The notes below the pieces were generated by a model that was not told the origin of the DNA, ran no database searches, and worked only from the letters and a program-made list of their open reading frames with translations. A program made the translations under genes and the position numbers. Below, in pieces: positions 32,101-52,579 of a stretch of DNA of 64,000 nt. The stretch's first letter is position 1, and each line of letters begins with the position of its first letter. Source of the stretch: a virus; the IMG/VR virus record IMGVR_UViG_3300025727_000603, positions 1-64,000 of that record. One strand, 5' to 3'.

Positions 32101-33715
32101 TATGTTAGGAAACACCAAGATGATGAGTTTATCCGATGTAGTAATTGATACTCATATCAATAAAGACTCAACGTATATCAAAAAAGTAGTTAAAGAACTT
32201 GTATATGACTCTTTAAATCCAGCTCATTGGGATTCAAGCGTTACAAACAAATATCATGACGGAATATCGGTCACTGATGCTCATAGTGGGATGGCTTCAA
32301 ATAAATACTATCGTGCTATGAAAATGGAACTTTTAGATGGGTTTGTATCTGGTGATACTCTGACATTTCATTACCATGACGGAGAGAATTTAAAAACTAT
32401 TTCCATTTCGGTTCCGGATAACGTATCAACTGGTTTAAATACAAAGGGTATATATCCGGCCGGAGTAATATCACAGGATCAATACAACGATAATCCTGAA
32501 TGGAAAAAAACAGCACGGTTTGGTGCTTCTAAATGGTTATCTCAATATCTTAAAGCAGAGTCTACCCCTGAACTCGCTACCTTTAACAGCTATTGGGATG
32601 TAACCTTCGCAACATACTATGACGGTAATGCTGATGTTGTTCCTGTTATAGTATTTACAGAGAAAAACCCTCTTTCTGTCAGTAATGAAACAAATTCACC
32701 TAACAATCAGTCACAATTGTGGAAACTTGGTCTGGAGTCTACTAACGCTGGTACTATTGCCTCTGGAAATTTTGACAATAGCAATACTGACAAAGTAGCA
32801 TATAATGAGAAATGGCACAGAGATGGCAACTACAATGACGAATTTAATCAATTTGATATATCTAAGGCAAACGATAGCAGTGGAATCTATACCAAAAATA
32901 AAACACCTCAGTATGCAGACAATTATATAACATCAATAGTAAATGTGCAAATTTCTGAACCTGAAATTATTAAAGATGATTTATCAGATACTCCTAAATT
33001 ATCTTTAAATATAGCAGGACAGACATCTACTAACCACATAGGGTCTTTCACACCATCAATAAGTGTTAATTCAAACGGCGTGGCAGAATTAACAATTACA
33101 ACTAGTGAGGATTTGACACCTTGGAAGGACGAGGGATACCTTAAATCGGCACCTAATAATACATACTCGGCAAGCGCTACCGGTCATATGACTAAAAGTA
33201 CAACCCAATGGGCCAGTGGAATTTTTAGCACAGATGCCGAACCTGGTACATCAACTGACTTCAAAGCAGGTAAAATTGTTTCTCGTAATGATTCGGGTGA
33301 CTTCTATGCTAATATTATGAATGGTACAGCAACTAAAGCCCGATATGCAGATTTAGCGGAAAACTATGTTGCTGATAAACAATATGAAGTTGGTACAGTA
33401 TTATCCTTAGGTGGTGAATTTGAGGTTACAGAATCAGATAGGATAATGGATTCTAGAATCGTAGGAGTCGTTTCTGAAAATCCTGCATACTTAATGAATT
33501 CATATTGTACAGGTGAATTTATAGCTACTGTAGCACTAAGAGGAAGAGTACCTGTTAAAGTAGAAGGACCAGTTGATAAAGGTGACATTATTATATCATC
33601 TGGAAGAGGTACAGGAGTTTCTAATAATAACCCTTCATTTGGTTCTATTATAGGAAAGGCTGTAGTATCTAAAACTTCTGAAGGTACCGAGTTAATAGAG
33701 GTAGTTATCACCTAA
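29177..33715 (+). CDS. tail fibre-like structural protein with C-terminal intramolecular-chaperone-like domain
   Basis: N-terminal SDTFNEWRLKTNEI and LTT.A.T...AINE motifs; C-terminal A.YADLAENY.AD..YEVGTV...GG..EVT...GVVSENPAYLMN...VAL.GRVPVKV.G...KGD...IIGKA. Confidence 0.7.
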   Translation: MVHILDKSTRINVTESDTFNEWRLKTNEIGSFIGDKHHIARYSTINYDWIPLWTDTELLNGNDENRKHPDTKVPYRKALVNIKIQGMHALESTSTEDWVAMQTETTQSIIKQEIDFGGMLTEENIRVTIKTHQPGAVNDDDRYYYGDVGTDYPYGYADNDILTIRGSSIGGVDGINDLKVKVAVTASHVNEGVTFKYISNVKISGQPINESEYGSDYITLALTKLPPASIYNELHQIRSDLAGEQENPNFIPFTKLTTNAQTIALAINEVNAKIQGTQGNLTLLKTIDDELQSIPWSKYYKQYTIDGNGNTTITDGYKIDDIVYVDPTIINDIGDTLYFKSITEYNVDNPVSRDNDGNFDRSYNLTQQGQGNLVENGVPVDSSITWFQVDSTVYSSMSLNKSLNIVNTSLGITSNNTLASLKNNHPDYTGPQDTIYHSLRNIDSYIGNYLGLKSQVYNRYVNPYRTVTLDGVATNNIDYSSIGTGDPGTIKLPTGMLLSQAFTDPNDLEYNFLPVDADKNGLYAQWTTQVTEPYQLYTKSYHPDTNVFNGFVAAADDDIVVALTKLRLRVDMLTEEIYLTKRDAGDSSAAWQWAQRITKSDQFENNFSGMHGIINILKGLEDLVSPITGDSLDRGKLSRSGFKTDYADTAGWDQSIPTGSKQEQSLTNNIYEDYDSSHVEGPLWAGSTDSDDKPLGIIAGSITRISADGGYKPQYSSDLLILRTAGVTPVDGTSHNNIDFPSTVTGTSKSADIRTLYPERIVINNGSETQVAIGYTETDRTDTNFWTNNDNTFIDHSSNPSWVWETSSGLNLLQQTATDQPMNLDVKGDIRATNKIYIGPSDNIRSIDDLYLSSGIREKEASENAPVQNIFTKPIFREGLVVHSEKPMNDWYTFTEDGRIQPDAQLLQREIEDVVGAMVTDKISATGTPSTLNMESGLNVRYDSLKADTNSGLRSPHQATLNFEVHSPDILITGDMLGNTKMMSLSDVVIDTHINKDSTYIKKVVKELVYDSLNPAHWDSSVTNKYHDGISVTDAHSGMASNKYYRAMKMELLDGFVSGDTLTFHYHDGENLKTISISVPDNVSTGLNTKGIYPAGVISQDQYNDNPEWKKTARFGASKWLSQYLKAESTPELATFNSYWDVTFATYYDGNADVVPVIVFTEKNPLSVSNETNSPNNQSQLWKLGLESTNAGTIASGNFDNSNTDKVAYNEKWHRDGNYNDEFNQFDISKANDSSGIYTKNKTPQYADNYITSIVNVQISEPEIIKDDLSDTPKLSLNIAGQTSTNHIGSFTPSISVNSNGVAELTITTSEDLTPWKDEGYLKSAPNNTYSASATGHMTKSTTQWASGIFSTDAEPGTSTDFKAGKIVSRNDSGDFYANIMNGTATKARYADLAENYVADKQYEVGTVLSLGGEFEVTESDRIMDSRIVGVVSENPAYLMNSYCTGEFIATVALRGRVPVKVEGPVDKGDIIISSGRGTGVSNNNPSFGSIIGKAVVSKTSEGTELIEVVIT

Positions 33716-34461
33716 TGATCGGTATTCTTGGTTATGGTTTTGTTGGGAAAGCAGTTGATAAAGGGTTCACAAAAACAGATAAAATAATATCGGACCCTTT
33801 ATATAATGACGTATCTATTGAAGATATGATGGATACAGAATGTATATTTGTATGCCTTCCAACACCTACAGTAAACGGTAAAATAGAAGCAACAATACTA
33901 TTAAATGCACTCAAGCATCTAGAAGAACTCGAGTACTCTGGTCTTATAATAATAAAATCTACTGTTCTTCCAGACCTAATTAAAGGGTACTCTAATAATG
34001 TAGTATGTGTACCGGAATTCTTATCTAGAGCAACAGCTCACCATGATTTCATTAACCCTCATGTATTAATAATAGGATCAAATTCTATTGTTACATCACA
34101 CCATACTTTAGCTATATTTAAGAAATATTCTGAGGTTTCCACAAAGAATGTACATCTAACAGATATAAAAACAGCTTGTATATTAAAGTATACTATGAAT
34201 ACCTTTAATGCCCTAAAAATAACATATTTAAACGAGATATATAAAGTATGTGGGATAGAGGGTATAGATTACAAAGAAATAGTATCTGTATTAGAGCGAG
34301 TACCGAGAATGGGTACAGGTCTTTTTGATGTTCCTGGTCCAGATGGTAAGTATGGATTTGGTGGTCCGTGTCTTCCTAAAGATGCTGAGTCTTTTGCCTC
34401 TGCATACTCTATGGATTTAGTAAAAGGTATATTAGAGGTTAATTCGTTATTAAGACATTAA
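33715..34461 (+). CDS. ugd: UDP-glucose/GDP-mannose dehydrogenase family protein (lacks C-terminal UDP-binding domain)
   Basis: GILGYGFVG Rossmann motif, FVCLPTP, IKSTV.P, PEFL, KY..N.F.ALKI...NE and catalytic GFGGPCLPKD. Confidence 0.85.
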   Translation: MIGILGYGFVGKAVDKGFTKTDKIISDPLYNDVSIEDMMDTECIFVCLPTPTVNGKIEATILLNALKHLEELEYSGLIIIKSTVLPDLIKGYSNNVVCVPEFLSRATAHHDFINPHVLIIGSNSIVTSHHTLAIFKKYSEVSTKNVHLTDIKTACILKYTMNTFNALKITYLNEIYKVCGIEGIDYKEIVSVLERVPRMGTGLFDVPGPDGKYGFGGPCLPKDAESFASAYSMDLVKGILEVNSLLRH

Positions 34462-35438
34462 ATGTTCTATTATCAGAAGGGTGTAATCTAAACTGCTCAT
34501 ATTGTGGAATGGATAAATGGTCTAAAACCACTATATCTCAAGATTCTGTAATAAATAGATTTAAAGAACTTAGACTTGAGTACCCTAATGATCGTATACG
34601 AATAGACTTTTTTGGAGGTGAACCTCTTCTCCAAATGAAGATGGTTAAGTCAATTATATCAAAGATGAAGAAAGTTGATGATAATTATACCTTAGCTATG
34701 CCTACTAATGGGATATCTCTAACACCTGGAATACTAGATTACCTAAAAAAAGAAAAAGTCTCTGTATCTCTCTCATTCGATGGCTTATGGCAAAACGATA
34801 GGAGACCTATTAGAGATTCCAATCTATCTTCTTTAAATGTACTGTACGCTAAACGAAAATTGTTTTCTGGATTAAAATGTCATTCTATGATATCCGGATC
34901 TGACTATAATTTACTAGAAAATCATTTATATATAACTCAAAATTTTGGGATGAATCCTGAACTAACATTAGTTAGGGATAGAGGGACATGGACACCAGAA
35001 TCAGTTAAACTTCTTCAGATCGGTATTAACGAAATTTATGAGTGGTACAAAAATAATCTCTCTGAAGATATGCCTAATTTTATATTATTCTGGCTTCGCG
35101 ATATATTAAGATATCATTATAAAGGATTTACAGTTGAAGGATGTGGTGTAGGAAGAGATCTTCATGCATTAACAGAGACTGGAGAGTCCGTTACATGTGA
35201 CAGATTTGCTGGGGATAAAGAAGCAGTTGAGAAGATAAATGAGTTTTACTCTATGCCTGAATGCTCAACTTGTCGTGTAAAGAATTATTGTCATAAAGGT
35301 TGTATGTATGAACAAATTAAGTCAAATGGGCCAATCCCTGAACTTTGTGATATATATAAGTATTGTTATGATAAAACAAAAGAAATACTACCCCTGATAC
35401 CTAAAGATATAATAAGGAGAGAATTGAATGATTCATGA
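34449..35438 (+). CDS. radical SAM/SPASM protein 1 (peptide-maturase type); probable ATT start
   Basis: The CNLNCSYC motif is at 34482-34505, in frame but upstream of ATG 34509. Also FFGGEPLL, TNG, SFDG, CGVG...C and C..C.....C.KGC...C (SPASM). Confidence 0.85.
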   Translation: MKTLNVLLSEGCNLNCSYCGMDKWSKTTISQDSVINRFKELRLEYPNDRIRIDFFGGEPLLQMKMVKSIISKMKKVDDNYTLAMPTNGISLTPGILDYLKKEKVSVSLSFDGLWQNDRRPIRDSNLSSLNVLYAKRKLFSGLKCHSMISGSDYNLLENHLYITQNFGMNPELTLVRDRGTWTPESVKLLQIGINEIYEWYKNNLSEDMPNFILFWLRDILRYHYKGFTVEGCGVGRDLHALTETGESVTCDRFAGDKEAVEKINEFYSMPECSTCRVKNYCHKGCMYEQIKSNGPIPELCDIYKYCYDKTKEILPLIPKDIIRRELNDS

Positions 35439-35658
35439 TATTACTGATATTAATCAGATTAATACAAGATTATTGAAGACTGTTACACACCTGATAGATG
35501 CGTCTAAATATCTTTCGGATATACCTGAATTTCAAGAAGAATCCTATAAAATTGCTCTTCTGGCAAAATGTTTTATTGATGTAGTCGAACCTCAAAAAGA
35601 AAAAATTACAGAAGAAACAATTAATTCTATACTAGATGAGATATTAAATGCTCAATAA
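35428..35658 (+). CDS. small helical hypothetical protein between the two SPASM enzymes
   Basis: 76-aa ORF with SD (aggag), overlapping both neighbours. Confidence 0.6.
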   Translation: MIHDITDINQINTRLLKTVTHLIDASKYLSDIPEFQEESYKIALLAKCFIDVVEPQKEKITEETINSILDEILNAQ

Positions 35659-36784
35659 TAAAAGACAACAATTTACGTTTGAAATTACAACTACTGCTCT
35701 CTGTAATATGAATTGTACATATTGCTTTGAAGGTCTAAAAACAGATAAGCGTACTTTAAACAATGTACAGGTTTCTGTATTAAAGTCTAAAATAGAGGAA
35801 ATATTAAAATCCAATTGGTTTTTAAGAGATTATGGAGTCCTTAATATATCATTTTGGGGTGGAGAACCTACATTAAATGGACCATTAATTGTTGATATGA
35901 TGAATACATTCGAGCTAAATGATTCTGTAACCTATCATATATATACTAATGGACTAGATAGAAAGAAACTTGATTATGTACTTGATTCAGTATCTACAGA
36001 TAAACTTGCAATTCAGGTATCTTGGGATGGTGATGTCATTAATAAAAAGTATAGAGTTCAGGGAGTAGATAAAGATACAACTGCACGAGTACTTAATAAT
36101 TTAGAGTATCTAATAGAAAGGGGTATAAACGTCTCAATGAAAGCTACAATACCTCTAGAGTCTATGGACGATATTGAAGAAACATGGGATTCATACAAAA
36201 CTTTATATGACAAATTAGGGTCTAGAGCTAATATATCTTATGCCCCTACAATAGATTATGTAAATGAATTACCTGAGGAGACCCAAGAAGCTTCAATAGC
36301 TACATTTAGATCAGCTATGATTAGAGTAGCAAAAAAGGAATTAGAATTTTATAAAGAGCATAATCATTTTTTATGCTCTTGGTTTGACGGTAATGAGCAG
36401 AAAGTACATTGTTCCTCGGGTGCTAATATGGTTGCTATAGATGTAACGGGTAAGTCTTATGCGTGTCATGGTTCATTATATTCTCCTAATAAAGAATCAA
36501 TGGGTTCAGGATCTATAACAGATGCTGAGTGGGTTAAGAATTTAGGTTCTGAAACTAAAAAATATAAAAAGGCTATTAAAACTGTACCTGAAACATGTGT
36601 AGATTGTGTTGCAACAACTTGTATGATTTGCCCTGTATCTTCCTTAGATAATTCAAAAAAATCAGATTTTATGGATAGGTGGACTGATAGATATATAAAT
36701 AATATGTGTGGGTATTTTAAAACATTTGGTGAAATAGACCGAGCGGTTGTAACCAAAATAAACAGAGAAAGAGAAGAGGCATAG
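35648..36784 (+). CDS. radical SAM/SPASM protein 2 (peptide-maturase type)
   Basis: CNMNCTYC, FWGGEPTL, YTNG, QVSWDG, CSSG...YACHG and CVDCVATTCMIC...C. Confidence 0.9.
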   Translation: MLNNKRQQFTFEITTTALCNMNCTYCFEGLKTDKRTLNNVQVSVLKSKIEEILKSNWFLRDYGVLNISFWGGEPTLNGPLIVDMMNTFELNDSVTYHIYTNGLDRKKLDYVLDSVSTDKLAIQVSWDGDVINKKYRVQGVDKDTTARVLNNLEYLIERGINVSMKATIPLESMDDIEETWDSYKTLYDKLGSRANISYAPTIDYVNELPEETQEASIATFRSAMIRVAKKELEFYKEHNHFLCSWFDGNEQKVHCSSGANMVAIDVTGKSYACHGSLYSPNKESMGSGSITDAEWVKNLGSETKKYKKAIKTVPETCVDCVATTCMICPVSSLDNSKKSDFMDRWTDRYINNMCGYFKTFGEIDRAVVTKINREREEA

Positions 36785-36787
36785 ACT

Positions 36788-37576
36788 ATGACAAATACAT
36801 ACGGGACATCAACCTTTATACCAGAAGATAAGTGGCATACAGCTTCGACCGGTGGAAACGAATACAAATCAGTCAGTTCTACTTGTAGCGGTCATAGAGC
36901 TAATAATTCCCACAATAATGTAGACTGGAACCTATTTGGGACTGACACAATAATCAGCATAGGTGATTATAATACTATATACGATGCTGTTCAGACAGAA
37001 CTAGAAGAATGGTTAGCGTTTAAAAACTACAGTGGTACAAAGACATATTCGGATCTAAAAGGTTATAGAAATGTAGGTTCCAGAAAAACAACAGATAGTG
37101 TAATAGACGATCAAGATCTTGTCGCTATCCATTCTATATTAGAGGCTATACTTGGAGAAAACGGAGCAAAACATACAAACACTAATTATGGAAATAGCGG
37201 TCAAGCTAACCGAATAGGTACGGGATGGACTAACAGCTCAGGTACTGCTCCTACATCAACAAAAACAAGCGCTGAGAAAGTTAAAATCACTGATGTTACC
37301 TCTACTGCTATTAGAAAAGGTGCTGTTAAAGGGGCGGGCATGATTGAAAAATCGTATAGTTCAGAATTTGGTGGTAAGGTAGAAGGTACGCTTATTCAAA
37401 ACGAATTCTACAATCCAACTGGTGCAGCTGAGTTTGATGGAAAAACGAGATGGGCAGACAATTCCATTGAGGAAAAATTTAACCGATGTCGTAGTAATTG
37501 TATTTGCGATTCTGATTGTGCCTGTAATGCTGTTTGTAATTGTAACAATAACTGTGATTGTAATTATACTCAATAG
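36788..37576 (+). CDS. Cys-rich-tail protein, candidate radical SAM substrate / virion component
   Basis: S/T/G/N-rich 262-aa protein ending CRSNCICDSDCACNAVCNCNNNCDCNYTQ (9 Cys in 29 aa); SD gagg present. Confidence 0.7.
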   Translation: MTNTYGTSTFIPEDKWHTASTGGNEYKSVSSTCSGHRANNSHNNVDWNLFGTDTIISIGDYNTIYDAVQTELEEWLAFKNYSGTKTYSDLKGYRNVGSRKTTDSVIDDQDLVAIHSILEAILGENGAKHTNTNYGNSGQANRIGTGWTNSSGTAPTSTKTSAEKVKITDVTSTAIRKGAVKGAGMIEKSYSSEFGGKVEGTLIQNEFYNPTGAAEFDGKTRWADNSIEEKFNRCRSNCICDSDCACNAVCNCNNNCDCNYTQ

Positions 37577-37588
37577 GAGATGAAATAA

Positions 37589-38203
37589 ATGATGATATAT
37601 AATATGGCACTAGTGACAGATAAAGGAACACATTTTGAGATAAATGGGGTTACAACTAACGTAGCCTCTAATATAAAAAACAAAGAAGAGCACTATCTTA
37701 ATCTTTCTTCAAAAGCAGCAGAAATTATTAAGGAAGCATTAAACTCTGGTAATAATAGAATTAATGTCTATAAACCATTAAAGTCTATGGAAGTTTTACC
37801 GGGAGAAGTTATTATAGAGGATATAGATCCAGAAGATATCAGAAATGTTAAATCGTCAGAGATTAAAAGAATCAGGGTCCTAATAACACCCGAACTAGCT
37901 TCCATTTCAGGTATAGCACTCTATTCATGGATTATGCTTAATAATGAACTAAATTCTAAAGGATACTTTATATATGATGGTAATAGAGAAGAAGTATACC
38001 TAAGTATATTAGAAACTGGTGATGAAGAGCTTATTAACAAGCTGGAAGAATATTTAAATTATAAAGATGAGATTGCTAGAGTAGCTCAATTAAATTCTAA
38101 ATTTTCTAATATTATTAAAGAAATAATGACTCTTACAGATAAAGATGAGATTATTGAGAAAGCTAACAAATTTATAGAAAATTATATGAAGTTAAATGAT
38201 TAA
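37589..38203 (+). CDS. hypothetical protein (possible partner/chaperone of the Cys-rich protein)
   Basis: 204-aa ORF with strong SD (aggag); no catalytic motif recognised. Confidence 0.55.
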   Translation: MMIYNMALVTDKGTHFEINGVTTNVASNIKNKEEHYLNLSSKAAEIIKEALNSGNNRINVYKPLKSMEVLPGEVIIEDIDPEDIRNVKSSEIKRIRVLITPELASISGIALYSWIMLNNELNSKGYFIYDGNREEVYLSILETGDEELINKLEEYLNYKDEIARVAQLNSKFSNIIKEIMTLTDKDEIIEKANKFIENYMKLND

Positions 38204-38205
38204 TA

Positions 38206-38976
38206 ATGAGCAGGCGAATTGGTGTAGTATATAAATGGCAAATACATAATAAGATAAATGGATCTTTATTCTATGCATTTGAGTATGCAGTATACCTCAA
38301 AACTGAGCTATACATAGTAGGAATCACAAAAGAAGATTTAAATCTAGTTAACAATATCTTCAGAGCAAAATACTCTATTTCTCCGGTGAATATTAAATCA
38401 ATTAATGTAACTAATTTATATAGCCTTGATCTCCAGAAAACTCTATTAGTTGATATTAAATCGTTCTATAATGTAAAGGAATTCCTGACAGGAGATGTTC
38501 ATGTATTCTCCGATGTATCTCATCCTATGTTTAGATATAAGAATGAAAGGAGTGTAACATACTATGGATCATATGATTATCAGAATTATGATGTATTTAA
38601 TTATCTTAAATTAAACTTTTCTATATTTAAAGATATTATAAAGTCTGAAGATAAAACCTTTGTATCAGGGGTGTATCCATTCTTAGGATTCTCGAAATAT
38701 CGGAATAAAGATAATATTATAATGAAAGAACATTATGTGGGTCGTGGAGATTTATTTGAATTAATATCTTCAGTAGTATATGTACATAGCTCACGTGATA
38801 CTAATAATAGAATAATTCCAGAAGCCTTTTATTACTCTAAGAAAATTAAAATCATTGAAGAACTAGAGAATATAATAGACTCTGTTACTCTTAGATATAA
38901 TGATATTAAGACTAATGGTCTTTCTAATTATACATTATCCCGTGACGATATGATGATACAAGGAATGCTAGGATGA
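38206..38976 (+). CDS. hypothetical protein, possible degenerate GT-B glycosyltransferase
   Basis: N-terminal INGSLFYAFEY and C-terminal D...RIIPEAFYY.K, resembling the GT-B donor-binding helix. Confidence 0.4.
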   Translation: MSRRIGVVYKWQIHNKINGSLFYAFEYAVYLKTELYIVGITKEDLNLVNNIFRAKYSISPVNIKSINVTNLYSLDLQKTLLVDIKSFYNVKEFLTGDVHVFSDVSHPMFRYKNERSVTYYGSYDYQNYDVFNYLKLNFSIFKDIIKSEDKTFVSGVYPFLGFSKYRNKDNIIMKEHYVGRGDLFELISSVVYVHSSRDTNNRIIPEAFYYSKKIKIIEELENIIDSVTLRYNDIKTNGLSNYTLSRDDMMIQGMLG

Positions 38977-42842: not shown

Positions 42843-43402
42843 GAGTATCTATATTAATACTAACACATAATAGACCTCTCTTATTTAAGCGGTGTATTTC
42901 ATCAGTATTATTAAATAAACCAGAGAATGTAGAAATATTAGTTAATAATGATTCAAAAGATATAAAGGAGATTGCTGGTGCGACATATTATTATAAAACT
43001 CATTCGGATCTAAGTGATACTTATAAGTATCTATTTAATAAGGCCTCAGGTGAATTTATATATTTTTTAGAAGACGATGATTATGTATCTTCTGACTTTT
43101 GGAAGATACTATCTCAGGTTAAAGAGAATACAGTATTTAGATATATCCCTGAGAAGAGTATTAAGTTATACTATGAATACTTTATACATAACCCTTCATT
43201 TGAAGAACATTTTCAATTAGGGCAACTGGTATTTAAAAAGAAATCATTAACCTCCTTTCCAAAAGGTAATAATATACACAATGATTATCAACTATATAAA
43301 TCTCTTTCGGGTTCGATAATGAATGATCGAAGACCAATTTATACACAAACTACTGATGGTAACGACAATATAAGTTTTGATGAATATCCAGAAACAATAT
43401 GA
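42839..43402 (+). CDS. glycosyltransferase family 2
   Basis: SILILTHNRP..F.RC..SV, EILVNND and ASGEFIYFLEDDD (DxD). Start re-assigned to the ATGA overlap at 42839. Confidence 0.85.
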   Translation: MRVSILILTHNRPLLFKRCISSVLLNKPENVEILVNNDSKDIKEIAGATYYYKTHSDLSDTYKYLFNKASGEFIYFLEDDDYVSSDFWKILSQVKENTVFRYIPEKSIKLYYEYFIHNPSFEEHFQLGQLVFKKKSLTSFPKGNNIHNDYQLYKSLSGSIMNDRRPIYTQTTDGNDNISFDEYPETI

Positions 43403-45963: not shown

Positions 45964-46838
45964 AAATACAGGTTAAATTAGCTGGTGCGGTATCTCATTA
46001 TAATTTATTTAAATTATTAAAAAAATCTATTCAGAGGTATCAAGGGATATTTGATTTTACTGTTTATGATGCACCCAATCTTTGTAAATGGAATGCTGGT
46101 CGTGTAAATCGTGATATAACAATAACGCCGGAAATGGTAAGGTGGTATAATGACGCAGGGATAGGGGTGGCATTTACATTCACAAATGATATTATTGATG
46201 TCACTGATCCGGTGGGTATTGACTTATTAGAGATGCTTGATCACAATCCATTGAATTCTATAATACTAATAAACGATGACTTCAGGGAATTTTTGCGTGA
46301 GTCATACCCAAAATATAAATTAACTTTCTCTATTACTGGGCATCCGAATGATATAACTATAACAAATAAATTATTACAACATTATCTCAATTTAGAATCT
46401 AAGTATGATGTTATTGTTCCTAGATTTGAAATGACCTTTAATTCAGAATTTCTTTCGGCCATTGATTCTAAAAAATATGAACCTATAACAAATGACACTT
46501 GCATATATGGATGTAATATATTGAGAGAGCATATGTCTACCATAGCAGATAAGAATAGGATGTATGATAACCCTTGGGTAGACATGGAACATGGTGAGGC
46601 ATTTAAGGTAGAGGAGTGTTGGATAAAACATTTTGATCCTGATGTCGGGTCAGATAAAGATAGAGAAGAATATGGAGAAGAACTTGGGATGGATTTTACA
46701 AAGAGTATGTATACAAGGGCTCTAAAATCTGGGTATCGTAGATTTAAAGTTATGGGCCGTGAACTTGGTAGTTTAGAACTTCGTACTGAAATTATAAACA
46801 ATCTTAAATTATTAAAAGAAGCATATGAAGAAATCTAA
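45960..46838 (+). CDS. peptidase U32-like putative Fe-S protein
   Basis: WNAGR, FTN, N..CIYGC....H...C and G...FKVMGR resemble the U32 Cys ligands and the KIEGR motif. Confidence 0.5.
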   Translation: MKIQVKLAGAVSHYNLFKLLKKSIQRYQGIFDFTVYDAPNLCKWNAGRVNRDITITPEMVRWYNDAGIGVAFTFTNDIIDVTDPVGIDLLEMLDHNPLNSIILINDDFREFLRESYPKYKLTFSITGHPNDITITNKLLQHYLNLESKYDVIVPRFEMTFNSEFLSAIDSKKYEPITNDTCIYGCNILREHMSTIADKNRMYDNPWVDMEHGEAFKVEECWIKHFDPDVGSDKDREEYGEELGMDFTKSMYTRALKSGYRRFKVMGRELGSLELRTEIINNLKLLKEAYEEI

Positions 46839-47679
46839 CAGTAGGATTCCTATCAGATCTGTTGAATGGTTGGTCACAGAAAATTGTAATTATACTTGTG
46901 ACTATTGTGCTTTATATAACTCTAATAAGCCATCCAGAGATTTGAATGAGATAAGAAAATTTCTAATTGGGATAGCAAGGAAACAAATTATATATGACTT
47001 TACTTTTTTCGTATTCGGTGGGGAACCATTTCTTCATCCATCAATAAAAGAAATTATAGTAATGATGAATGAACTACATATTGATTATGTCTTCCAAACA
47101 AATCTTTCTAATAAGAGTGTAAAGAAAATTACTGATATACTTGATTCTGGAGTCACGATACAGGGGATTAATATCTCTGTCCATTTCTCTCAGCAATCAC
47201 TATCTCAGTACATAAAAAATATTAGGAGTATGATAAATCTTTCTGCTAATATTAAAATAATAGATGTGATGTATGATGGGTTTTATAATGTAGAATTATA
47301 TAGACAATTAGTAAAAGAATTGAAGCACTTTAAGTACTTTAATGATATAGCTATATTTCTAGTACCTGTATCTGATTTTTTGGTCACTGGATTTGGTGAT
47401 CATCTTCGGGAGTATAATAAATTAGTTATTGATTCAAAGTATAATGATATTAAATTTGAAGAAGAGTTTATGGTGCATCCTATTACAGGAAAGGATACTG
47501 AACGAAGAATTATTTGGGAAGAATTTGTAAATAAAGAATGGTCACCAAGGGGTAAAGAATGTCTTATGAAAAAGAGTTTTGAGATGTATGATTCTAATCT
47601 AAAATTATTTAATTGTTGTTTCCATGATTATATTGAGGAACCATATATTTGTCCTTATGATAAATGCTTTTTGAGTTAG
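46825..47679 (+). CDS. radical SAM protein 8
   Basis: CNYTCDYC, FGGEPFLHP, QTNLS, SVH and G..C...CC...CPYDKC. Confidence 0.9.
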   Translation: MKKSNSRIPIRSVEWLVTENCNYTCDYCALYNSNKPSRDLNEIRKFLIGIARKQIIYDFTFFVFGGEPFLHPSIKEIIVMMNELHIDYVFQTNLSNKSVKKITDILDSGVTIQGINISVHFSQQSLSQYIKNIRSMINLSANIKIIDVMYDGFYNVELYRQLVKELKHFKYFNDIAIFLVPVSDFLVTGFGDHLREYNKLVIDSKYNDIKFEEEFMVHPITGKDTERRIIWEEFVNKEWSPRGKECLMKKSFEMYDSNLKLFNCCFHDYIEEPYICPYDKCFLS

Positions 47680-47689
47680 AGTACTGAGA

Positions 47690-48376
47690 ATGAAAAAGGA
47701 ATTACTTACCTACTCATATGAACAGGGATTATCTCATATCCCATCTGCCTTATCTATGCTTGATTATGTTGACACACTATTCTCTAATAGATTAGTAACT
47801 CCAGAAGACTATATAATAATAGGTAAACCGTTTGGATCTCAAGCATATTATCTGGTATGGGAGAAGCTTGGTTATTTAGATAATATAGAATCTCTAAGTC
47901 CTGGTCTTAAACATGATGAAATAGATTTTGTGGATTATTCAGAAGAAACTATAGGCAATGCTCTTGGTGTAGCATCAGGTATCGCACTTACTACTGATAG
48001 ACTGATATGGGTTAATATAACAGATGGAGCACTTCAAATGGGTAATACCCTAGAAGCTATACAGTTTATTGGAGCTAAATGTCAGAATAATATATTACTT
48101 ACAGTTGATTATAACGGATCTCAAGTGACAGGGAGAACGGATGATATTATTACAGTAGATCCAGTAATACAGATGCTATCTTTATATGGATGGGATGTAC
48201 ATTATGATAGTCTAGATAATTTTAAGATATCAAGTAAGCCGTGTGCCTTTATAATGAATACAGTAAAGGGTGATGGGGTTGATACTATGATACAGGATGA
48301 GAAGAAATGGCATTACAAGAAAATAGAAACATTGAAAGAATTACAATCGTTGGTGGTGGAACTTCAGGTTATCTAA
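47690..48376 (+). CDS. transketolase-like N-terminal (TPP-binding) subunit
   Basis: HIPSALS, GNALGVASGIA, DGALQMG...EA...VDYN (GDG..N-like) and TVKG.GV...WHY. Confidence 0.8.
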   Translation: MKKELLTYSYEQGLSHIPSALSMLDYVDTLFSNRLVTPEDYIIIGKPFGSQAYYLVWEKLGYLDNIESLSPGLKHDEIDFVDYSEETIGNALGVASGIALTTDRLIWVNITDGALQMGNTLEAIQFIGAKCQNNILLTVDYNGSQVTGRTDDIITVDPVIQMLSLYGWDVHYDSLDNFKISSKPCAFIMNTVKGDGVDTMIQDEKKWHYKKIETLKELQSLVVELQVI

Positions 48377-49548
48377 GTGCTTTATTTTTAGGTAAAACAT
48401 ACCCAGAGAAATCTATTACATGGATATATCCAGAAGATAATAATCCTATAGGTGTAGGGGAGGCATTAGTACCTCCTGTATCTAAGTTCCTTTATAATTT
48501 AGGTATTTCACATGAAGATATTCTTAAACATTGTAACGGAACATTAAAGCTTGGAATAAAACTTGAAGATTTTAGTCTGAAAGAATGTGTATTTCCTTTT
48601 GGTATTGGGGCCTCTGAAGAAAATAGTATATTAAATATAATTAAATCTAATAAGATACCTTCTAATATATTAGATTACCAAGATATATCAGTACATTTAA
48701 GAACAACAGAAGCATTAACATTTATAGAGAAGTTAATACCATCTAATGTAAGTATCTCTAGAGATAAAGTAGATAGAGTAGAGGGATATGACTTATTAGT
48801 GGATTGTACAGGATTTACTCGTAAATTTAGTTATCTTAAAGATAATCACAAATCTATATCACATATAATACCAAATAATAGAGCCTTATCTTACAGAGCG
48901 GAATATACTAATCTCAAAGAACAAATGCTCCCGTATTCCATATTTAAAGCAATGGATTTTGGTTGGGTATGGAATATACCCTTAGGTGATCAATTAGCTA
49001 TGGGATATGTACATAATAGTAAATATGATGTCCAATCTGAGTTTATTTCTTACATTAAAGATAAAATGGGTATTATTGTAGAGAAGGATGATATTGATGA
49101 AATAGATATGGTAACCGGACGTAATAAAATACATCTTCATAATAATATAGTCCCTATAGGACTTTCATCAGGGTTTATAGAACCATTAGAATCAACTGGG
49201 TTATATCTAACAACATACGCTCTTGAAACATTAAGTAAATATATTAACTCAGAGATATCTGAAAAACAATATAATGAATCTATTAACTCCACCTTTGATG
49301 GTATTACTGATTTTATAGGAGCTCATTATAAGTTCTCTAATAGAGATAATGAATACTGGAATATGTATAAAGATATTGATATTAATCTATATAATGAAAT
49401 AGATATATTTCCAAAGGAAGCATGGGATTATATTCTTTCTGGATTTGGTATGACCGAACGACCAAAAGAACAGTTGGATATAAAAGAGATGATAAAGATA
49501 TCAAAAGGTATAAATTACACAGAATGGTATGAGAGCAACTTTAAATAA
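48307..49548 (+). CDS. flavin-dependent halogenase, tryptophan halogenase (PrnA-like) family
   Basis: IVGGGTSG, IGVGEA, T.KLGI (catalytic Lys position), DCTGF, GWVWNIP (WxWxIP) and GLSSGFIEPLESTG. Confidence 0.88.
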   Translation: MALQENRNIERITIVGGGTSGYLSALFLGKTYPEKSITWIYPEDNNPIGVGEALVPPVSKFLYNLGISHEDILKHCNGTLKLGIKLEDFSLKECVFPFGIGASEENSILNIIKSNKIPSNILDYQDISVHLRTTEALTFIEKLIPSNVSISRDKVDRVEGYDLLVDCTGFTRKFSYLKDNHKSISHIIPNNRALSYRAEYTNLKEQMLPYSIFKAMDFGWVWNIPLGDQLAMGYVHNSKYDVQSEFISYIKDKMGIIVEKDDIDEIDMVTGRNKIHLHNNIVPIGLSSGFIEPLESTGLYLTTYALETLSKYINSEISEKQYNESINSTFDGITDFIGAHYKFSNRDNEYWNMYKDIDINLYNEIDIFPKEAWDYILSGFGMTERPKEQLDIKEMIKISKGINYTEWYESNFK

Positions 49549-49990
49549 ATTTATAAGACGTACCGATAACACTATACTACTTCATTGTGATATGTGGGGT
49601 TTTGATTGTCCTTCAATCAATGTAGGTATACAAGAACCTAATATGGTTAATATAGCAGCTGGTCTTGCATCACAAGGTAAGAAAGTAGTTATATACGGTG
49701 TTGCTGGATTTGTATTGTATAAAGCATATGAACAAATAAAACTCAATATAAAGGGTTGGTCTGAGAACTATGGATCTATAGTATTTGTTAATGCAGGCCG
49801 TAATGGTTGTTATTCTATATGTGGTCGTGGCCACTTAGTAGAAGATGACCAAGATCTTTGTAAGGCATTAGATCTAGATTTATATACACCTGCAACAAGA
49901 AAGGAATTTCTAAGAGTTCTTAAAGAAGGACTTCAAGTAAATGGATCTAGATTTATTAGATTAGGGTATGACGGTGAGGTATGGGGATGA
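49529..49990 (+). CDS. transketolase-like pyrimidine-binding subunit
   Basis: INVGIQEPNMVNIAAGLA..G, F...AYEQIK, GH...D and FIRL. Confidence 0.82.
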   Translation: MRATLNKFIRRTDNTILLHCDMWGFDCPSINVGIQEPNMVNIAAGLASQGKKVVIYGVAGFVLYKAYEQIKLNIKGWSENYGSIVFVNAGRNGCYSICGRGHLVEDDQDLCKALDLDLYTPATRKEFLRVLKEGLQVNGSRFIRLGYDGEVWG

Positions 49991-50592
49991 GATGTCTAGT
50001 TACTGGATATAACGGATTCTTAATGAGTTATCTGATACCCTGTTTAAAGTATGATATTGTATATTATGAGGTTGATAAGGAATACAAGGATATTGATATT
50101 GTAATACATTTTGCATCACCATCAGATGATTTTGATTTCCTTGATAAATCTAAAACTGCACATAGTATGATAGATATGACTATAGAACTATTAAATATAG
50201 CTAGAAAGAACAATGCTAAGTTTATATTCTCTTCTTCAATGGCATCTCAAGAGATTACAAATGAATACTCTGTATATAAGCTTGCAATGGAACACTATAT
50301 ACAAAGTACATATAATAATCATTGTATTCTTAGAATACCAAGAGTATATGGTCAACTGAAGAAAAAGGGATTAATGAGAAAGTTTAGAGAAGATTTAGTA
50401 CCTCCCTCTGATATGAACTTATCTATAGAATATATAGACATACATGAATGGTTATTACAAACTATTCAGTACATAAAAGGTCCTTTAGGACTTTTTGAAT
50501 ATAACAATTTAACAATAGATACATTATATAACATTAAACATGAATATATTAATACTAGGCGGGACAGGATTTATAGGAACACATCTAGCTAG
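49987..50592 (+). CDS. NAD-dependent epimerase/dehydratase (short)
   Basis: LVTGYNGFL, VIHFAS, FIFSSS, Y...K (YSVYK) and LRIPRVYG; start at the ATGA overlap. Confidence 0.75.
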   Translation: MRCLVTGYNGFLMSYLIPCLKYDIVYYEVDKEYKDIDIVIHFASPSDDFDFLDKSKTAHSMIDMTIELLNIARKNNAKFIFSSSMASQEITNEYSVYKLAMEHYIQSTYNNHCILRIPRVYGQLKKKGLMRKFREDLVPPSDMNLSIEYIDIHEWLLQTIQYIKGPLGLFEYNNLTIDTLYNIKHEYINTRRDRIYRNTSS

Positions 50593-51439
50593 ATCATATG
50601 AAGAATCAGGTGACTCTGTAACTGTAATAGATAACTATTCTACATCAAATTCTGGTGGTCTTAAAGTACTTAAGAACATTGATATAGTCTATAATGATAT
50701 AACAAAGATGGATGATTCCATACTTTACCCATATATTGGAAATGCAGATAAGATTTATTTTCTTGCAGGATCTGTTGGTGTATCTAATATAGACTCTAAT
50801 CCCTATCAAACTCTTTTGAATAATGTTGATATCTGTAGAAAACTTATCCCCCTATTTGAAAAGGCTCAGAGGCATGTAATATTCACATCATCCTCTGAAA
50901 TATATGGTTCTGCTGAGTATGCATTTTCTGAAGACGATCCAGCATCTATACCCTCATCACTTAATACAAGAGGTGGGTATGCAACCTCTAAGTTATTAAC
51001 AGAGTTTATGATAACATCCTCTTCTTTTCCATATTCTATAGCACGTCTATTTAATGTAGTAGGATCTGGTCAGTTATCTAAGTATGGTATGGTCCTACCA
51101 AGATTTATTGAAAAGGCAAAAAAGAATAAACCTTTAGCTATATATGGTACAGGAGAGCAAATAAGATCATTTTGTCATGTCTCAGATGCTGTAAGTCTTC
51201 TACAAAAGATAACACCTGAAGATAAATTAATTAATATAGGTAATTCTGAGGACCCTATTACTATGACAACACTAGCTATGTTAGTTATTAAACTTCTTCA
51301 CTCAAAATCTATAATTTCCTATAAAAATCCAAGGTCTGGTGAGATTATGTATAGAATACCCGATATGTCTATGGCAATTAATAAGTATGATTATAAACCT
51401 AGATATGATTTAGGTGATATAATAAAGGAAATGATGTGA
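50540..51439 (+). CDS. NAD-dependent epimerase/dehydratase (GalE / UDP-glucuronate decarboxylase-like)
   Basis: GGTGFIG, IDN.ST, LAGSVGV, SSSEIYG, YATSK, RLFNVVG, YGMVLPRF and G.G.Q.RSFCHV.D. Confidence 0.9.
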   Translation: MNILILGGTGFIGTHLARSYEESGDSVTVIDNYSTSNSGGLKVLKNIDIVYNDITKMDDSILYPYIGNADKIYFLAGSVGVSNIDSNPYQTLLNNVDICRKLIPLFEKAQRHVIFTSSSEIYGSAEYAFSEDDPASIPSSLNTRGGYATSKLLTEFMITSSSFPYSIARLFNVVGSGQLSKYGMVLPRFIEKAKKNKPLAIYGTGEQIRSFCHVSDAVSLLQKITPEDKLINIGNSEDPITMTTLAMLVIKLLHSKSIISYKNPRSGEIMYRIPDMSMAINKYDYKPRYDLGDIIKEMM

Positions 51440-52077
51440 TACTTTTTATATTTGCTCACCCAGATGATGAATCGTATGGGCCATCAGGTACAATATCAAA
51501 ATTATCTGATAATAATAAAGTTGTAGTTATTTCACTATGTAAAGGTGATAAACCGCATGCAACACATGTATCTTCCGATCGAATATTAGCATTTAAAGAG
51601 TCATGTCGTCTCTTAAATGCCCAACCTATTATATTCGATCAGTCAGATTGTAATATGGATTATTCTGAAACTCTTGAAACAATTGAAACTGTTATTGAAA
51701 CATACAAACCTGAAGAAGTATACACACATAATATATCAGATATACATAAGGATCATAGAATAGTATCGGAAGCTTGTATGGTAGCATGCAGACCTAAGAC
51801 CCAGAGTACAGTACGTGCTCTATACATGTTAGAAATACCGTCTTCTACAGATTGGAGTTTTGGACAAATTGAACCTGTATTTGTACCAAATTATTATGTT
51901 GATGTAACAGATAAGATAGTGCTTAAACAACGTGTAATGTCATTATATTCAACTGAACTCTATAATTACCCTGATTGCAGATCTATAGAATCTATGGAGG
52001 CCTTAGCTATGTACCGTGGAAAGCAAGTAGGAGTACATAGGGCAGAGGCGTTTAAACAAGTATATCGTCTATGTTAA
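51436..52077 (+). CDS. PIG-L family deacetylase
   Basis: FAHPDDE..G..GT, THN..D.H.DH, PN.YVDV and RG...G...AEAF. Confidence 0.9.
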   Translation: MILFIFAHPDDESYGPSGTISKLSDNNKVVVISLCKGDKPHATHVSSDRILAFKESCRLLNAQPIIFDQSDCNMDYSETLETIETVIETYKPEEVYTHNISDIHKDHRIVSEACMVACRPKTQSTVRALYMLEIPSSTDWSFGQIEPVFVPNYYVDVTDKIVLKQRVMSLYSTELYNYPDCRSIESMEALAMYRGKQVGVHRAEAFKQVYRLC

Positions 52078-52579
52078 TACGTTCTGAACCATAAAAGTCA
52101 GTAAAGCCGTATGATTTTGAGAGTATTGCCTTATATAGACCATCAAGATCATCATTATAAGGAAAACAGAATGATGTAGGTACTGAGTTAAAATATTTTA
52201 ACCAGAATTCTAACATTTCATCTGTATCTTGTTTTATCCAAGATATCTTATCTACTAATCTCTCAAACTTATTAAGATTTTGATGATAATGTGAATGGGC
52301 TCCAAGAGGTAATTCAAGCATTTGATCAAGAGTCATATAATTTTCCATATTACCCCTAAATGCTTCTTTATGAGCATTTCCACATGTTATAAATCTAGAG
52401 GATTGTATTGACTTCTCTGGACAAATAATTCCAGACGATATAAAGAATATCTTTTGATTCTTAAGATGTCTTGCATATTCATATTGTGTGTATAGACCAT
52501 CATCAAACGTTAAAAATAGATTTGGATCTATTATAAGAGGCTTTCTTAATTCGTGTATCATTAGGGTCTTATTAGTCAT
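52052..52579 (-). CDS. polysaccharide deacetylase (NodB-like)
   Basis: LTFDDG, FFI, GAHSHYH and FCFPY motifs. Confidence 0.8.
   Translation of the reverse strand: MTNKTLMIHELRKPLIIDPNLFLTFDDGLYTQYEYARHLKNQKIFFISSGIICPEKSIQSSRFITCGNAHKEAFRGNMENYMTLDQMLELPLGAHSHYHQNLNKFERLVDKISWIKQDTDEMLEFWLKYFNSVPTSFCFPYNDDLDGLYKAILSKSYGFTDFYGSERINIDDILV

Follow-up and report, generated by a model that had tools for sequence, protein, structure and literature searches.

Comparison with known systems

Several described systems resemble parts of the locus studied here. In the pairs PapB–PapA (freyrasin) and CteB–CteA, a SPASM enzyme is encoded beside a Cys-rich repeat in which Asp or Asn acceptors lie three residues from Cys, and NxxC-type thioether systems offer a further comparison among the ranthipeptides and SCIFF peptides. 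SPASM enzymes can also cross-link full-size Cys-rich proteins, as in CrpC/CrpA of Methanococcus voltae and QhpD/QhpC, where ranthionine is formed at the protein level (PMC13692751). Among viruses, the host recognition cluster described for pelagimyophages and cyanomyophages (Zaragoza-Solas et al., 2020; PMC7029224) combines fibres, glycosyltransferases, UDP-glucose dehydrogenase and 'radical SAM cassettes'. That study proposed modification of the host O-chain; the radical SAM genes and the Cys-ladder protein were not analysed there. For Campylobacter group II phages, a metabolic benefit to the host was proposed as the role of the radical SAM genes (PMC2853527; PMC3322345).

The window, which is the stretch of 64,000 nucleotides of viral DNA that we analysed, contains an island (33715–52579) that is best explained as the enzyme-rich part of a host-recognition (tail-fibre) cluster of a marine T4-like myovirus. 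As in the published cluster, this hypervariable island lies downstream of a giant DUF4815 (VrlC-type) protein. The layout agrees with the original prediction of about 24 packed and mostly overlapping genes between fibre blocks: the ORF listing gives 24 tightly packed genes (23 on the plus strand and 1 on the minus strand) with 17 overlapping junctions, and both flanks consist of fibre-type genes. The predicted TAATG stop/start coupling of the first gene to the upstream fibre gene can be read at 33713–33717. Contigs from other marine metagenomes (2012, 2024) span the whole island, which rules out an assembly artefact. Exactly eight CxxxCxxC radical SAM enzymes were found, the number originally proposed, by PF04055 and by scanning all six frames of the entire 79-kb record; all eight score above the PF04055 cut-off (starts at 34443/34509, 35648, 39910, 40943, 41997, 43377, 44300 and 46825). 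Also in line with the prediction, Pfam scans detected no transporter or leader peptidase among the island products. All of these products are soluble, with no membrane-spanning segment in any of them.

We consider it moderately probable that the conserved core of the island (33.7–41.0 kb) is a maturation cassette for a small fibre-type virion protein (36788–37576), whose Cys-ladder tip is cross-linked. The phage probably cross-links one of its own fibres at the tip, and perhaps glycosylates the same tip. We found no description of this kind of fibre-tip modification in the literature. The original prediction had assigned modification of a virion or tail protein to the entire island; it is supported for the proximal core only, where a fibre-type ladder protein, adjacent SPASM genes and fibre-like evolution come together.

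The ladder protein

The candidate substrate is a fibre-type protein of 262 aa (36788–37576, plus strand) with a (CxCNxx)4 ladder at residues 238–260 (37499–37567), followed only by TQ and the stop codon. RNA-library contigs align at 36900–37224, inside the ladder gene. The protein belongs to a family of phage proteins of 170–320 aa that have an invariant (CxCNxx)4 in common. An alignment of 16 distinct members, which are 21–79% identical, has invariant columns at C240, C244, C246, N247, V249, C250, C252, N253, C256, C258, N259 and Y260. Outside the ladder and one helix before it, ladder proteins of different lineages are unrelated, and their N-terminal bodies lack a recognisable fibre domain. 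The strict ladder motif had zero occurrences in 185,579 prokaryote species genomes, and the family is restricted to phages.

In 10 of the 16 aligned proteins, the ladder is immediately followed by S-D-x-x-L-K and a Peptidase_S74 domain (28.6 bits versus a cut-off of 22). Here this domain is a self-cleaving fibre chaperone with its Ser and Lys(+5) dyad present, similar to the Peptidase_S74 (PF13884) of endosialidase tailspikes and phage fibres. Unlike S74-chaperoned fibres, the window's ladder protein has no S74 domain; it ends, as do five others in the alignment, at the point equivalent to the S74 cleavage site. Because the window's protein ends where cleavage would leave its relatives, the ladder appears to form the C-terminal tip of the mature fibre-type protein. 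With its own S74 domain absent, the window's Cys-rich protein is a putative fibre-type protein by family membership. We know of no S74-chaperoned fibre with a Cys ladder or radical SAM partners.

The evolutionary rates point in the same direction. Compared to a close relative (L009), the enzymes are 95–99.5% identical with a dN/dS of 0.08–0.25, whereas the body of the ladder protein (codons 1–225) has a dN/dS of 0.87 and the upstream fibre 0.81. Hence, the body of the ladder protein evolves like the neighbouring fibre and unlike the enzymes. This neighbour is a large fibre-type protein of 1512 aa (29177–33715, plus strand) with PHROG matches at its C-terminus only. Its C-terminal domain of ~130–190 aa is found again immediately in front of the cassette in other phages (six loci by tblastn). 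The operon layout and gene order, together with the motif TATAAATA at 29026 upstream of this fibre gene, would fit late expression of the cassette.

The conserved cassette

Using a DNA pattern for the ladder, we collected 27 ladder loci from about 12 lineages. The neighbourhood check proposed with the original prediction, for co-occurrence of radical SAM genes, a Cys-rich protein and tail genes, gave the same result in every locus with enough flank: a p76-like ORF, rSAM2, the ladder protein, p204, p256 (or a deacetylase), p318 and rSAM3, in this fixed order. The cassette enzymes are only 30–55% identical across lineages, yet their gene order has been kept.

Two SPASM enzymes open the radical SAM series. 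The first, rSAM1 (34449–35438, plus strand), scores 51.4 bits to PF04055 in its open frame; its probable start is the ATT at 34449, because the CxxxCxxC motif lies upstream of the first ATG (34509), and a separate, independent assembly has the same sequence around this start. Its best NCBIfam match is the PapB family over the full length (98.7 bits), among solved structures it is closest to CteB (5wgg, E 4.5e-13, with the alignment covering CteB 95–420), and seven conserved C-terminal Cys have the full SPASM spacing. The second, rSAM2 (35648–36784, plus strand; PF04055 48.5 bits), immediately precedes the ladder gene wherever a locus has enough flank. It likewise matches the PapB family best over the full length (77.5 bits), has CteB and anSME as best solved relatives and carries seven conserved auxiliary Cys in SPASM spacing. 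Neither score comes near the PapB family cut-off, and an RRE is absent from both enzymes. rSAM3 (39910–40956, plus strand; PF04055 73 bits) has a single auxiliary set of four conserved Cys and is most closely related to enzymes that modify sugars and nucleotides: BlsE (7vob, 3.6e-13), with a similarity confined to the radical SAM core, followed by viperin-like enzymes. It is conserved within the cassette.

Between the two SPASM genes lies p76 (35428–35658, plus strand), which encodes a small acidic helical protein and overlaps both neighbouring genes. It has zero family matches in Pfam, NCBIfam and PHROGs, and homologs or positional equivalents of 65–100 aa precede rSAM2 in all lineages. The conserved protein p204 (37589–38203, plus strand; phrog_25260, function unknown) always follows directly behind the ladder gene; 13 sequences were aligned, and Atlas gave no lead.

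The other core genes resemble sugar enzymes. At the upstream end, the predicted Ugd is indeed an NDP-sugar (UDP-glucose type) dehydrogenase (33715–34461, plus strand; PF00984, PF03721), but a truncated one: its 248 aa match positions 70–294 of the 413 of TIGR03026, and the C-terminal UDP-binding domain is missing. The same gene lies beside rSAM1 in four other loci, at 45–48% identity. Two GT-B-like proteins had also been proposed. Zero Pfam matches were obtained for either, and the assignment is supported by structure models. For p318 (38973–39929, plus strand; phrog_24441), a GT-B-fold glycosyltransferase-like protein, the top Foldseek matches of the AlphaFold model (pLDDT 87.6) are all GT-B, with VIA Z scores of 15–16 (best 15.8) to GT4-type enzymes over 265 residues. 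Its paralog p256 (38206–38976, plus strand; hhalign 96.9% to p318) is a reduced GT-B-like protein with weak GT-B matches (pLDDT 89.3), and is replaced by a polysaccharide-deacetylase homolog in one lineage.

Proposed maturation of the fibre tip

Our results are similar to PapB–PapA and CteB–CteA in the pairing of a SPASM enzyme with a Cys-rich repeat. A similar pairing is found in a bacterial cluster, which has a PapB-like maturase and a PqqD protein beside a precursor built of CxC[NDH]xV hexads. However, the island differs from ranthipeptide and SCIFF systems in that it lacks an RRE domain, a leader peptidase and an exporter, and its enzymes score far below the family cut-offs. Moreover, the substrate would be a fibre-type protein of 170–320 aa, served by three radical SAM enzymes, two of which are SPASM enzymes. 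In CrpC/CrpA and QhpD/QhpC, as in the island, the SPASM gene adjoins the gene of a full-size Cys-rich protein rather than a short peptide. Yet, CrpC and QhpD have cellular archaeal or bacterial targets and use an RRE, whereas the island combines a viral structural-type target with RRE-less enzymes and a separate small acidic ORF.

The most likely sequence of events is as follows. The ladder protein would be produced late, alongside the fibres. The RRE-less rSAM2, aided by the acidic p76, would install S–C cross-links (thioethers of the ranthionine type), with rSAM1 as second SPASM partner in many lineages. These links would run from ladder cysteines to the invariant Asn/Asp in an NxxC/DxxC register, and so lock the fibre tip covalently; if the ladder protein is trimeric like other S74-chaperoned fibres, links between chains could be formed as well. 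The truncated NDP-sugar dehydrogenase, the BlsE-like rSAM3 and the two GT-B paralogs probably make a sugar and attach it to the ladder protein, and the variable distal genes probably add further tailoring.

Campylobacter phages may offer a partial parallel. Firehammervirus genomes encode homologs of rSAM2 (27% identity), rSAM3 (45%), p318 (32%) and the halogenase (32%). In CP220, a Cys-array protein with CDCNYCT repeats and CxCN motifs lies three genes from the rSAM2 homolog. The gene 3-9 product of phage IBB_35 is 94% identical to this protein, and was among the virion proteins found by ESI-MS/MS, at 2.6% coverage (PMC3322345). The similarity of the Campylobacter protein to the ladder protein is marginal (E 0.015), and the array is a CDCNYCT heptad in a protein of 535 aa versus a hexad ladder in proteins of 170–320 aa. 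In addition, unlike in the island, the enzyme homologs of the group II phages (CP220, CPt10, IBB_35) are dispersed in the genome.

Alternative explanations

An alternative explanation, which we regard as rather unlikely, has the enzymes at work on the host envelope: during infection they would synthesise or remodel one of its glycans (LPS or capsule), for instance to prevent superinfection, and the ladder protein would be a fibre that happens to lie next to them. Genes of the kinds usually seen in O-antigen and capsule loci are present (NDP-sugar dehydrogenase, SDR epimerase/dehydratase, GT2, PIG-L, polysaccharide deacetylase and transketolase-like), rSAM3 is akin to enzymes acting on sugars and nucleotides, and pelagimyophage clusters with glycosyltransferases and 'radical SAM cassettes' have been interpreted in this way (PMC7029224). 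However, a flippase, polymerase, ligase and polyprenyl-phosphate transferase are absent, none of the products has a membrane segment, and rSAM1 and rSAM2 are akin to peptide and protein maturases rather than sugar enzymes. Strict adjacency of enzymes and ladder across lineages at 30–55% identity would also be unexpected for unrelated neighbours.

Somewhat less likely still, the (CxCNxx)4 tip might be a structural needle held by metal or disulfides, with the substrates of the radical SAM enzymes elsewhere, for instance among sugars. The long tail fibre tip of T4, with its His-x-His iron sites, can be compared to such a metal-binding ladder. Paired Cys in a strict six-residue period, at the terminus of a protein with the chaperone type of trimeric fibres, would fit this explanation, as would the surplus of cysteines over acceptors (only three NxxC pairs for eight ladder cysteines) and the several radical SAM enzymes of the eight that lack a peptide-maturase signature. 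Yet, it accounts neither for the thioether-type SPASM gene that invariably lies upstream nor for the bacterial PapB-like enzyme that comes with the same hexad repeat, and metal binding alone gives no reason for the invariant Asn after each second Cys.

It is very unlikely that the ladder gene encodes a precursor from which a RiPP-like peptide or small protein is freed at lysis, as a toxin or signal, instead of being kept in the particle. Enzymes of the RiPP maturase type are present and a conserved C-terminal core follows a variable N-terminal part, but the island has no leader peptidase or exporter, and the family's one protease, the S74 chaperone, cuts off the part behind the ladder and not a leader. 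Furthermore, the body of the protein evolves like a fibre, and the analogous Cys-array protein was detected in Campylobacter phage virions. Hypermodification of phage DNA, brought to mind by the unusual bases of Campylobacter phages that share rSAM2, rSAM3, p318 and halogenase homologs, is equally improbable, since the eight radical SAM enzymes give only weak QueE-type matches far below the NCBIfam cut-off and no 7-deazaguanine-pathway family above it, Pfam scans contain no DNA transglycosylase or base-modification domain, and the cassette lies inside a fibre operon, tied to a fibre-type protein.

Distal accessory genes

The distal half of the island (five radical SAM enzymes, GT2, transketolase, SDRs, deacetylases and halogenase) may tailor the same protein; alternatively, it may alter the host surface, as published for the sugar genes of such clusters. 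Its first part is a variable accessory block (40943–47679, plus strand; Pfam) with rSAM4 (40943), rSAM5 (41997), GT2 (42803), rSAM6 (43377), rSAM7 (44300), two proteins of unknown function (45172 and 45960) and rSAM8 (46825). All five radical SAM enzymes have extra C-terminal Cys sets, and their cores are only 20–30% identical to each other. Five other loci have homologs of rSAM4, rSAM5, rSAM6, rSAM8 and GT2 downstream of their cassettes.

Most of the enzymes originally proposed for this half were recovered. PF00535 confirmed GT2, but the U32-like protein was not supported: 45172–45963 and 45960–46838 have zero matches in Pfam (E up to 10), NCBIfam and PHROGs. Of the two epimerases, one is a full-length SDR epimerase/dehydratase (50540) and the other only a fragment-sized SDR of 203 aa (49981), both on the plus strand and found by Pfam and NCBIfam. 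Two deacetylases are present, namely a PIG-L family enzyme (51436, plus strand; Pfam, NCBIfam) and a polysaccharide-deacetylase-like protein (52052–52579, minus strand, convergent with the operon) recognised by PHROG only (phrog_26430, 96.5 bits). Homologs of the SDR/PIG-L stretch (49981–52077) adjoin the cassette in two other loci, and homologs of the second deacetylase occupy the position of p256 in four.

The split transketolase-like ThDP enzyme (47690–48376 and 49529–49990, plus strand; Pfam, NCBIfam) was better supported for its N half (at the Pfam cut-off; NCBIfam 1e-11) than for its pyrimidine half (below the Pfam cut-off; NCBIfam about 1e-3). It is interrupted by a gene of the Trp-halogenase family (48307–49548, plus strand), and the predicted halogenase was confirmed by PF04820 at 218 bits. 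In one other locus the two transketolase halves are adjacent, and a 2024 seawater contig joins 48361 to 49530 with the halogenase absent. Because this natural variant exists, the halogenase is a dispensable insertion.

Fibre-type ladder protein

The Cys-rich protein of the island (262 aa; 36788–37576) carries a ladder of the form (CxCNxx)4 at 37499–37567, and sequence searches with this protein found only one close homolog. In the comparison locus L011, a distant relative of the radical SAM enzyme rSAM2 (34%) is followed by a 275-aa protein that has nothing in common with the protein of the window except for the 25-residue Cys ladder, which is 68% identical. The ladder of the L011 protein has an internal position, ahead of the intramolecular fibre chaperone Peptidase_S74 (PF13884) at residues 188–244 (28.6 bits versus a cut-off of 22).

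A back-translated DNA pattern of the ladder retrieved 8 viral and 19 metagenome loci. Alignment of 16 distinct ladder proteins, which are 21–79% identical, revealed the invariant pattern C-x-C-[ND]-S-D-C-x-C-N-x-V-C-x-C-N-x-x-C-x-C-N-Y, together with a common helix preceding the ladder and a common N-terminal Cys motif. In 10 of these proteins the ladder is directly followed by S-D-x-x-L-K, the Ser/Lys(+5) dyad of S74, and then by the chaperone domain. The remaining six, including the protein of the window, end at most 2 residues from that Ser. The features of a self-cleaving S74 fibre are thus present in relatives; the window's own protein has no S74 domain. The position of the ladder at the S74 cleavage point in this family argues that it is the mature C-terminal tip of a fibre-type protein, chaperoned in the same way as trimeric tail fibres and spikes.

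A homotrimer prediction for the ladder protein scored 0.00, with an uncertain fold of the partner itself, and speaks neither for nor against a trimer. In the ESM Atlas, the ladder protein had a sub-threshold lead (0.83) to a cluster described as 'Cys-rich repeat modification target', and its neighbor p204 (37589–38203) had none. A generic (CxCxxx)4 DNA pattern retrieved almost solely low-complexity repeats from viral contigs. Likewise, a relaxed (CxCNxx)3 pattern retrieved mostly (CN)n and GCGCNN repeats from prokaryote genomes, where the bacterial locus L209 was the single informative match. The strict ladder pattern was absent from 185,579 prokaryote species, represented by one genome each.

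Radical SAM enzymes

The eight radical SAM enzymes of the original prediction were all recovered. Each exceeds the PF04055 cut-off and contains CxxxCxxC, and a six-frame scan found none further in the record. The first of them, rSAM1 (34449–35438), passes the cut-off only if the stretch 5' of the ATG at 34509 is included. Its CxxxCxxC precedes this first ATG, and downstream of the in-frame stop at 34440 no ATG, GTG or TTG occurs ahead of the motif (window 34434–34511). An ATT at 34449, preceded by AGAGGT, marks a putative start region. The stretch is not an assembly error, since it is the same in a metagenome contig of 2012 and, but for one synonymous change within the motif, in the close relative L009.

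SPASM enzymes are defined here by a C-terminal motif of seven Cys, C-x9-17-G-x4-C ... C-x2-C-x5-C-x3-C ... C, which binds two auxiliary 4Fe-4S clusters. Judged by this motif, rSAM1 and rSAM2 (35648–36784) are both predicted SPASM enzymes. The Cys of rSAM1 (C234, C252, C274, C277, C283, C287 and C302) are kept in 8 out of 8 relatives. The seven C-terminal Cys of rSAM2, with the variant spacing C-x2-C-x4-C-x2-C, are kept in 17 out of 17. In the Pfam and NCBIfam scans, the SPASM models PF13186 and TIGR04085 were not listed at E ≤ 0.01, and only whole-enzyme SPASM families were matched. The best model over the full length of both enzymes was the PapB ranthipeptide maturase NF047865, with 98.7 bits for rSAM1 and 77.5 bits for rSAM2, far below its curated cut-off of 340. 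Among solved relatives, both are nearest to the thioether synthase CteB, with an alignment that begins at residue 95 of CteB, past its RiPP recognition-type (PqqD-like) domain (RRE). Indeed, neither rSAM1 nor rSAM2 contains an RRE, their CxxxCxxC motifs being located already at residues 14 and 19, respectively. HMM scans of p204 and of the small acidic protein p76 (35428–35658) gave no PqqD match that would point to a separate recognition protein.

The third enzyme, rSAM3 (39910–40956), has one auxiliary Cys set and is closest to BlsE, a nucleoside-sugar decarboxylase, and then to viperin-like enzymes. Further downstream, a 263-aa protein (45172–45963) ends in NNCDGLLKIYK, while the C-terminus of rSAM6 (43377–44327) reads CNCDGLLKICK. 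This protein is possibly a radical SAM paralog that has degenerated and lacks CxxxCxxC; the BLASTP similarity between the two proteins was not significant.

GT-B pair and other island genes

The original prediction of 24 closely packed genes at 33715–52579 agrees with the ORF listing, in which 17 junctions overlap, and the TAATG junction with the upstream fibre gene is present in the sequence. Two of these genes had been called GT-B-like, and neither product has a Pfam match. For p318 (38973–39929) the assignment is supported by an AlphaFold model (pLDDT 87.6), which superposes on GT4-type GT-B enzymes over 265 residues with Z 15–16 (6eji: Z 15.8, rmsd 3.9, 265 residues; PimA and BshA: Z 15.6–15.7). 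The model thus has the two Rossmann-like domains, superposable on solved enzymes, of a predicted GT-B fold. Its neighbor p256 (38206–38976) is a paralog of p318 by sequence, and its model gave weak fold matches only. Searches with profiles of p318 and p256 had no matches among PDB sequences.

Several other assignments were confirmed by HMM scans, including the GT2, the PIG-L deacetylase and the halogenase, which belongs to the FAD-dependent Trp halogenase family PF04820 (218 bits versus a cut-off of 21). Others held in part. One of the two proposed epimerases is a full SDR and the other is an SDR but short, the split transketolase stands as a transketolase-like pair, Ugd is an NDP-sugar dehydrogenase but truncated, and the polysaccharide deacetylase was supported at the PHROG level. 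The proposed U32-like protein was not confirmed: PF01136 matched no ORF of the island (unassigned ORFs were followed to E 10).

Genomic setting and synteny

The IMG/VR virus record is 79 kb long, and the window covers its first 64 kb. A giant DUF4815 (VrlC-type) protein of 4335 aa, with a DUF4815 domain, is encoded at 15941–28948. Upstream of it are baseplate genes of the gp48, gp53, gp5, gp6, gp7 and gp8 types, and several fibre-type genes follow it, on both sides of the island. Among cultured phages, the gp6-type baseplate wedge protein is closest to those of Methylophilales phage Melnitz and of Pelagibacter myophages (33–38% identity). The window therefore shows the hypervariable fibre island 3' of a VrlC-type giant protein that characterizes the host recognition cluster of T4-like marine myophages, and this setting and the pelagimyophage relatives place the island inside the 'host recognition cluster' sensu Zaragoza-Solas et al. 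These authors described glycosyltransferases, a UDP-glucose dehydrogenase and "radical SAM cassettes" in the pelagimyophage cluster, and left the last unanalysed (PMC7029224). Marine metagenome contigs of 2012 and 2024 together span the entire island.

In every locus with enough flanking sequence, the gene order of the conserved core, here called the cassette (33.7–41.0 kb), was constant: an acidic ORF of 65–100 aa, rSAM2, the ladder protein, p204, p256, p318 and rSAM3. In some loci the p256 slot is filled by a deacetylase homologous to the one at 52052–52579. In many lineages, rSAM1 and a short dehydrogenase are located upstream, preceded by a fibre gene with a C-terminal domain of the type found in the fibre-type protein at 29177–33715 (1512 aa). 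The C-terminal ~190 residues of the latter match PHROGs 22593 and 6427, to which no function is assigned, and at six or more divergent loci the fibre gene immediately 5' of the cassette ends in the same domain. For two contigs with the cassette (181 and 227 kb), the matches to the gp23 Pfam model were all sub-threshold, and hence the cassette may extend beyond close T4 relatives. Cultured phages gave no megablast matches to the island.

Analogues in bacteria and cultured phages

A contig of a Desulfobulbaceae MAG (JAAELB010000496.1; L209:1595–3796) contains a RiPP-like cluster. It encodes a PapB-like radical SAM/SPASM maturase with an RRE, a PqqD-like protein with a TAT signal, and a 124-aa precursor whose C-terminal half consists of CxC[NDH]xV hexads and which matched no NCBIfam family. 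This pairing indicates that a repeat very similar to the ladder serves as maturase partner in bacteria. Recently, SPASM enzymes were demonstrated to cross-link full-size Cys-rich proteins in CrpC/CrpA and QhpD/QhpC (PMC13692751).

Among cultured phages, homologs of rSAM2, rSAM3 and p318 were found solely in Campylobacter group II phages, whose homolog of the Trp halogenase family is common also to cyanophages and other marine phages. Three genes from the rSAM2 homolog, CP220 encodes gp140 (L164:2161–3765), a protein of 535 aa in which CDCNYCT is repeated six times and CxCN motifs occur in addition. The array in CP220 is a heptad, and a (CxCxxx)3 hexad ladder was absent. As gp140 resembles the ladder family only marginally (E 0.015), we treat this as an analogy rather than as proven homology. 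The heptad stretch of gp140 is annotated merely as the DNA 'repetitive region x'. The counterpart in phage IBB_35 (gene 3-9; 60,318 Da; L285:5499–7103) is 94% identical. In 2012, ESI-MS/MS of virions identified 38 proteins, of which it is one, at 2.6% coverage (PMC3322345); this low coverage would fit a heavily modified protein. In the same phage, genes 2-32 to 2-34 encode an adjoining 264-aa radical SAM protein, an 86-aa ORF and a short 257-aa 'UDP-glucose dehydrogenase' (supplement of PMC3322345), a trio reminiscent of the one that rSAM1, p76 and the short dehydrogenase form in the window.

Possible function of the cassette

On balance, we favour the explanation that the cassette acts in the maturation of a fibre tip. 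One or both SPASM enzymes would cross-link the Cys of the ladder to its invariant Asn/Asp. These residues are located three residues ahead of the next Cys, in the NxxC/DxxC register known for ranthipeptides. That the chemistry is specifically thioether formation is a more tentative part of this explanation, with somewhat less than an even chance of being correct. The dehydrogenase, rSAM3 and the GT-B pair would probably add a sugar.

Downstream of the cassette, additional radical SAM enzymes and GT2 recur in varying combinations, and in the L149 lineage the transketolase halves, SDRs and PIG-L adjoin the cassette. A role of these distal genes on the same protein is a little less probable again. 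They may provide further tailoring of the sugar or protein, or alternatively have a host-surface role as proposed in the literature. A classical RiPP pathway, with a short precursor and leader, a leader peptidase and an exporter, does not describe the island: the precursor has 262 aa here and 170–320 aa in the family, domain scans of the island found no transporter or peptidase domain, in line with the original note, and none of the island products has a membrane segment.

In its broadest form, maturation of the fibre tip would mean that large phages of many lineages have a dedicated, horizontally mobile cassette that decorates a small fibre on the receptor side: its invariant (CxCNxx)4 tip would receive a sugar as well as thioether cross-links, possibly interchain within a trimer. 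We regard this as plausible, short of probable. If true, RiPP-type radical SAM chemistry would reach viral structural proteins, and its use by phages on their own particle would be an undescribed class of enzymatic virion modification. The literature searched contained no description of fibre-linked radical SAM enzymes, or of radical SAM maturation or cross-linking of a phage structural protein. Autocatalytic cross-linking of virion proteins is known, as is their glycosylation in a few phages. If true, the maturation of the fibre tip would also account for the abundant radical SAM genes of marine T4-like and Campylobacter phages, which have been puzzling since 2010. It would further indicate a tip hardened or decorated by chemistry, with possible consequences for how hosts are recognized and how particles persist in seawater. 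The idea is directly testable, since the ladder family has a precise signature in sequence and the Campylobacter phages provide an analogue in culture.

Expression signals and sequence divergence

The T4-type late promoter core TATAAATA occurs at 1660, 14106, 29026, 36694–36701, 52579/52589 and 61966, and lies 37–150 bases 5' of several structural genes. The 3' part of rSAM2 contains one copy, at a distance of 87 bases from the ladder gene; this copy is also seen in the relative L141. Yet, the frequency of the core in the window was not above chance (16 versus 19 expected) and an upstream copy is not conserved ahead of ladder genes, so that TATAAATA cannot prove late transcription. Scans for sigma-70 promoters and terminators remained at or below shuffle level. 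Contigs from RNA libraries, which may contain DNA, covered only some short stretches of the island; the uncovered parts are uninformative.

In a comparison with the close relative L009 (91.6% DNA identity), the enzymes of 33.7–36.8 kb are 97–99.5% identical, and the conserved downstream genes 84–99%. Enzymes and conserved downstream genes showed dN/dS ratios of 0.08–0.25. The exception was rSAM5 (41997–42842), with a dN/dS of 0.72, which suggests relaxed constraint or a changing substrate. Codons 1–225 of the ladder protein had a dN/dS of 0.87, in agreement with 0.81 for the upstream fibre gene. The ladder itself falls within a DNA-identical block in this pair, which is therefore uninformative on it; its constraint is visible from the distant family members.

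The Trp halogenase gene (48307–49548) sits between the halves of the split transketolase. In a seawater metagenome contig of 2024, position 48361 is joined straight to 49530, so that 1168 bases are missing and the halogenase is absent, and in L149 the transketolase halves are adjacent. Hence, the halogenase is a presence/absence insertion in natural populations.
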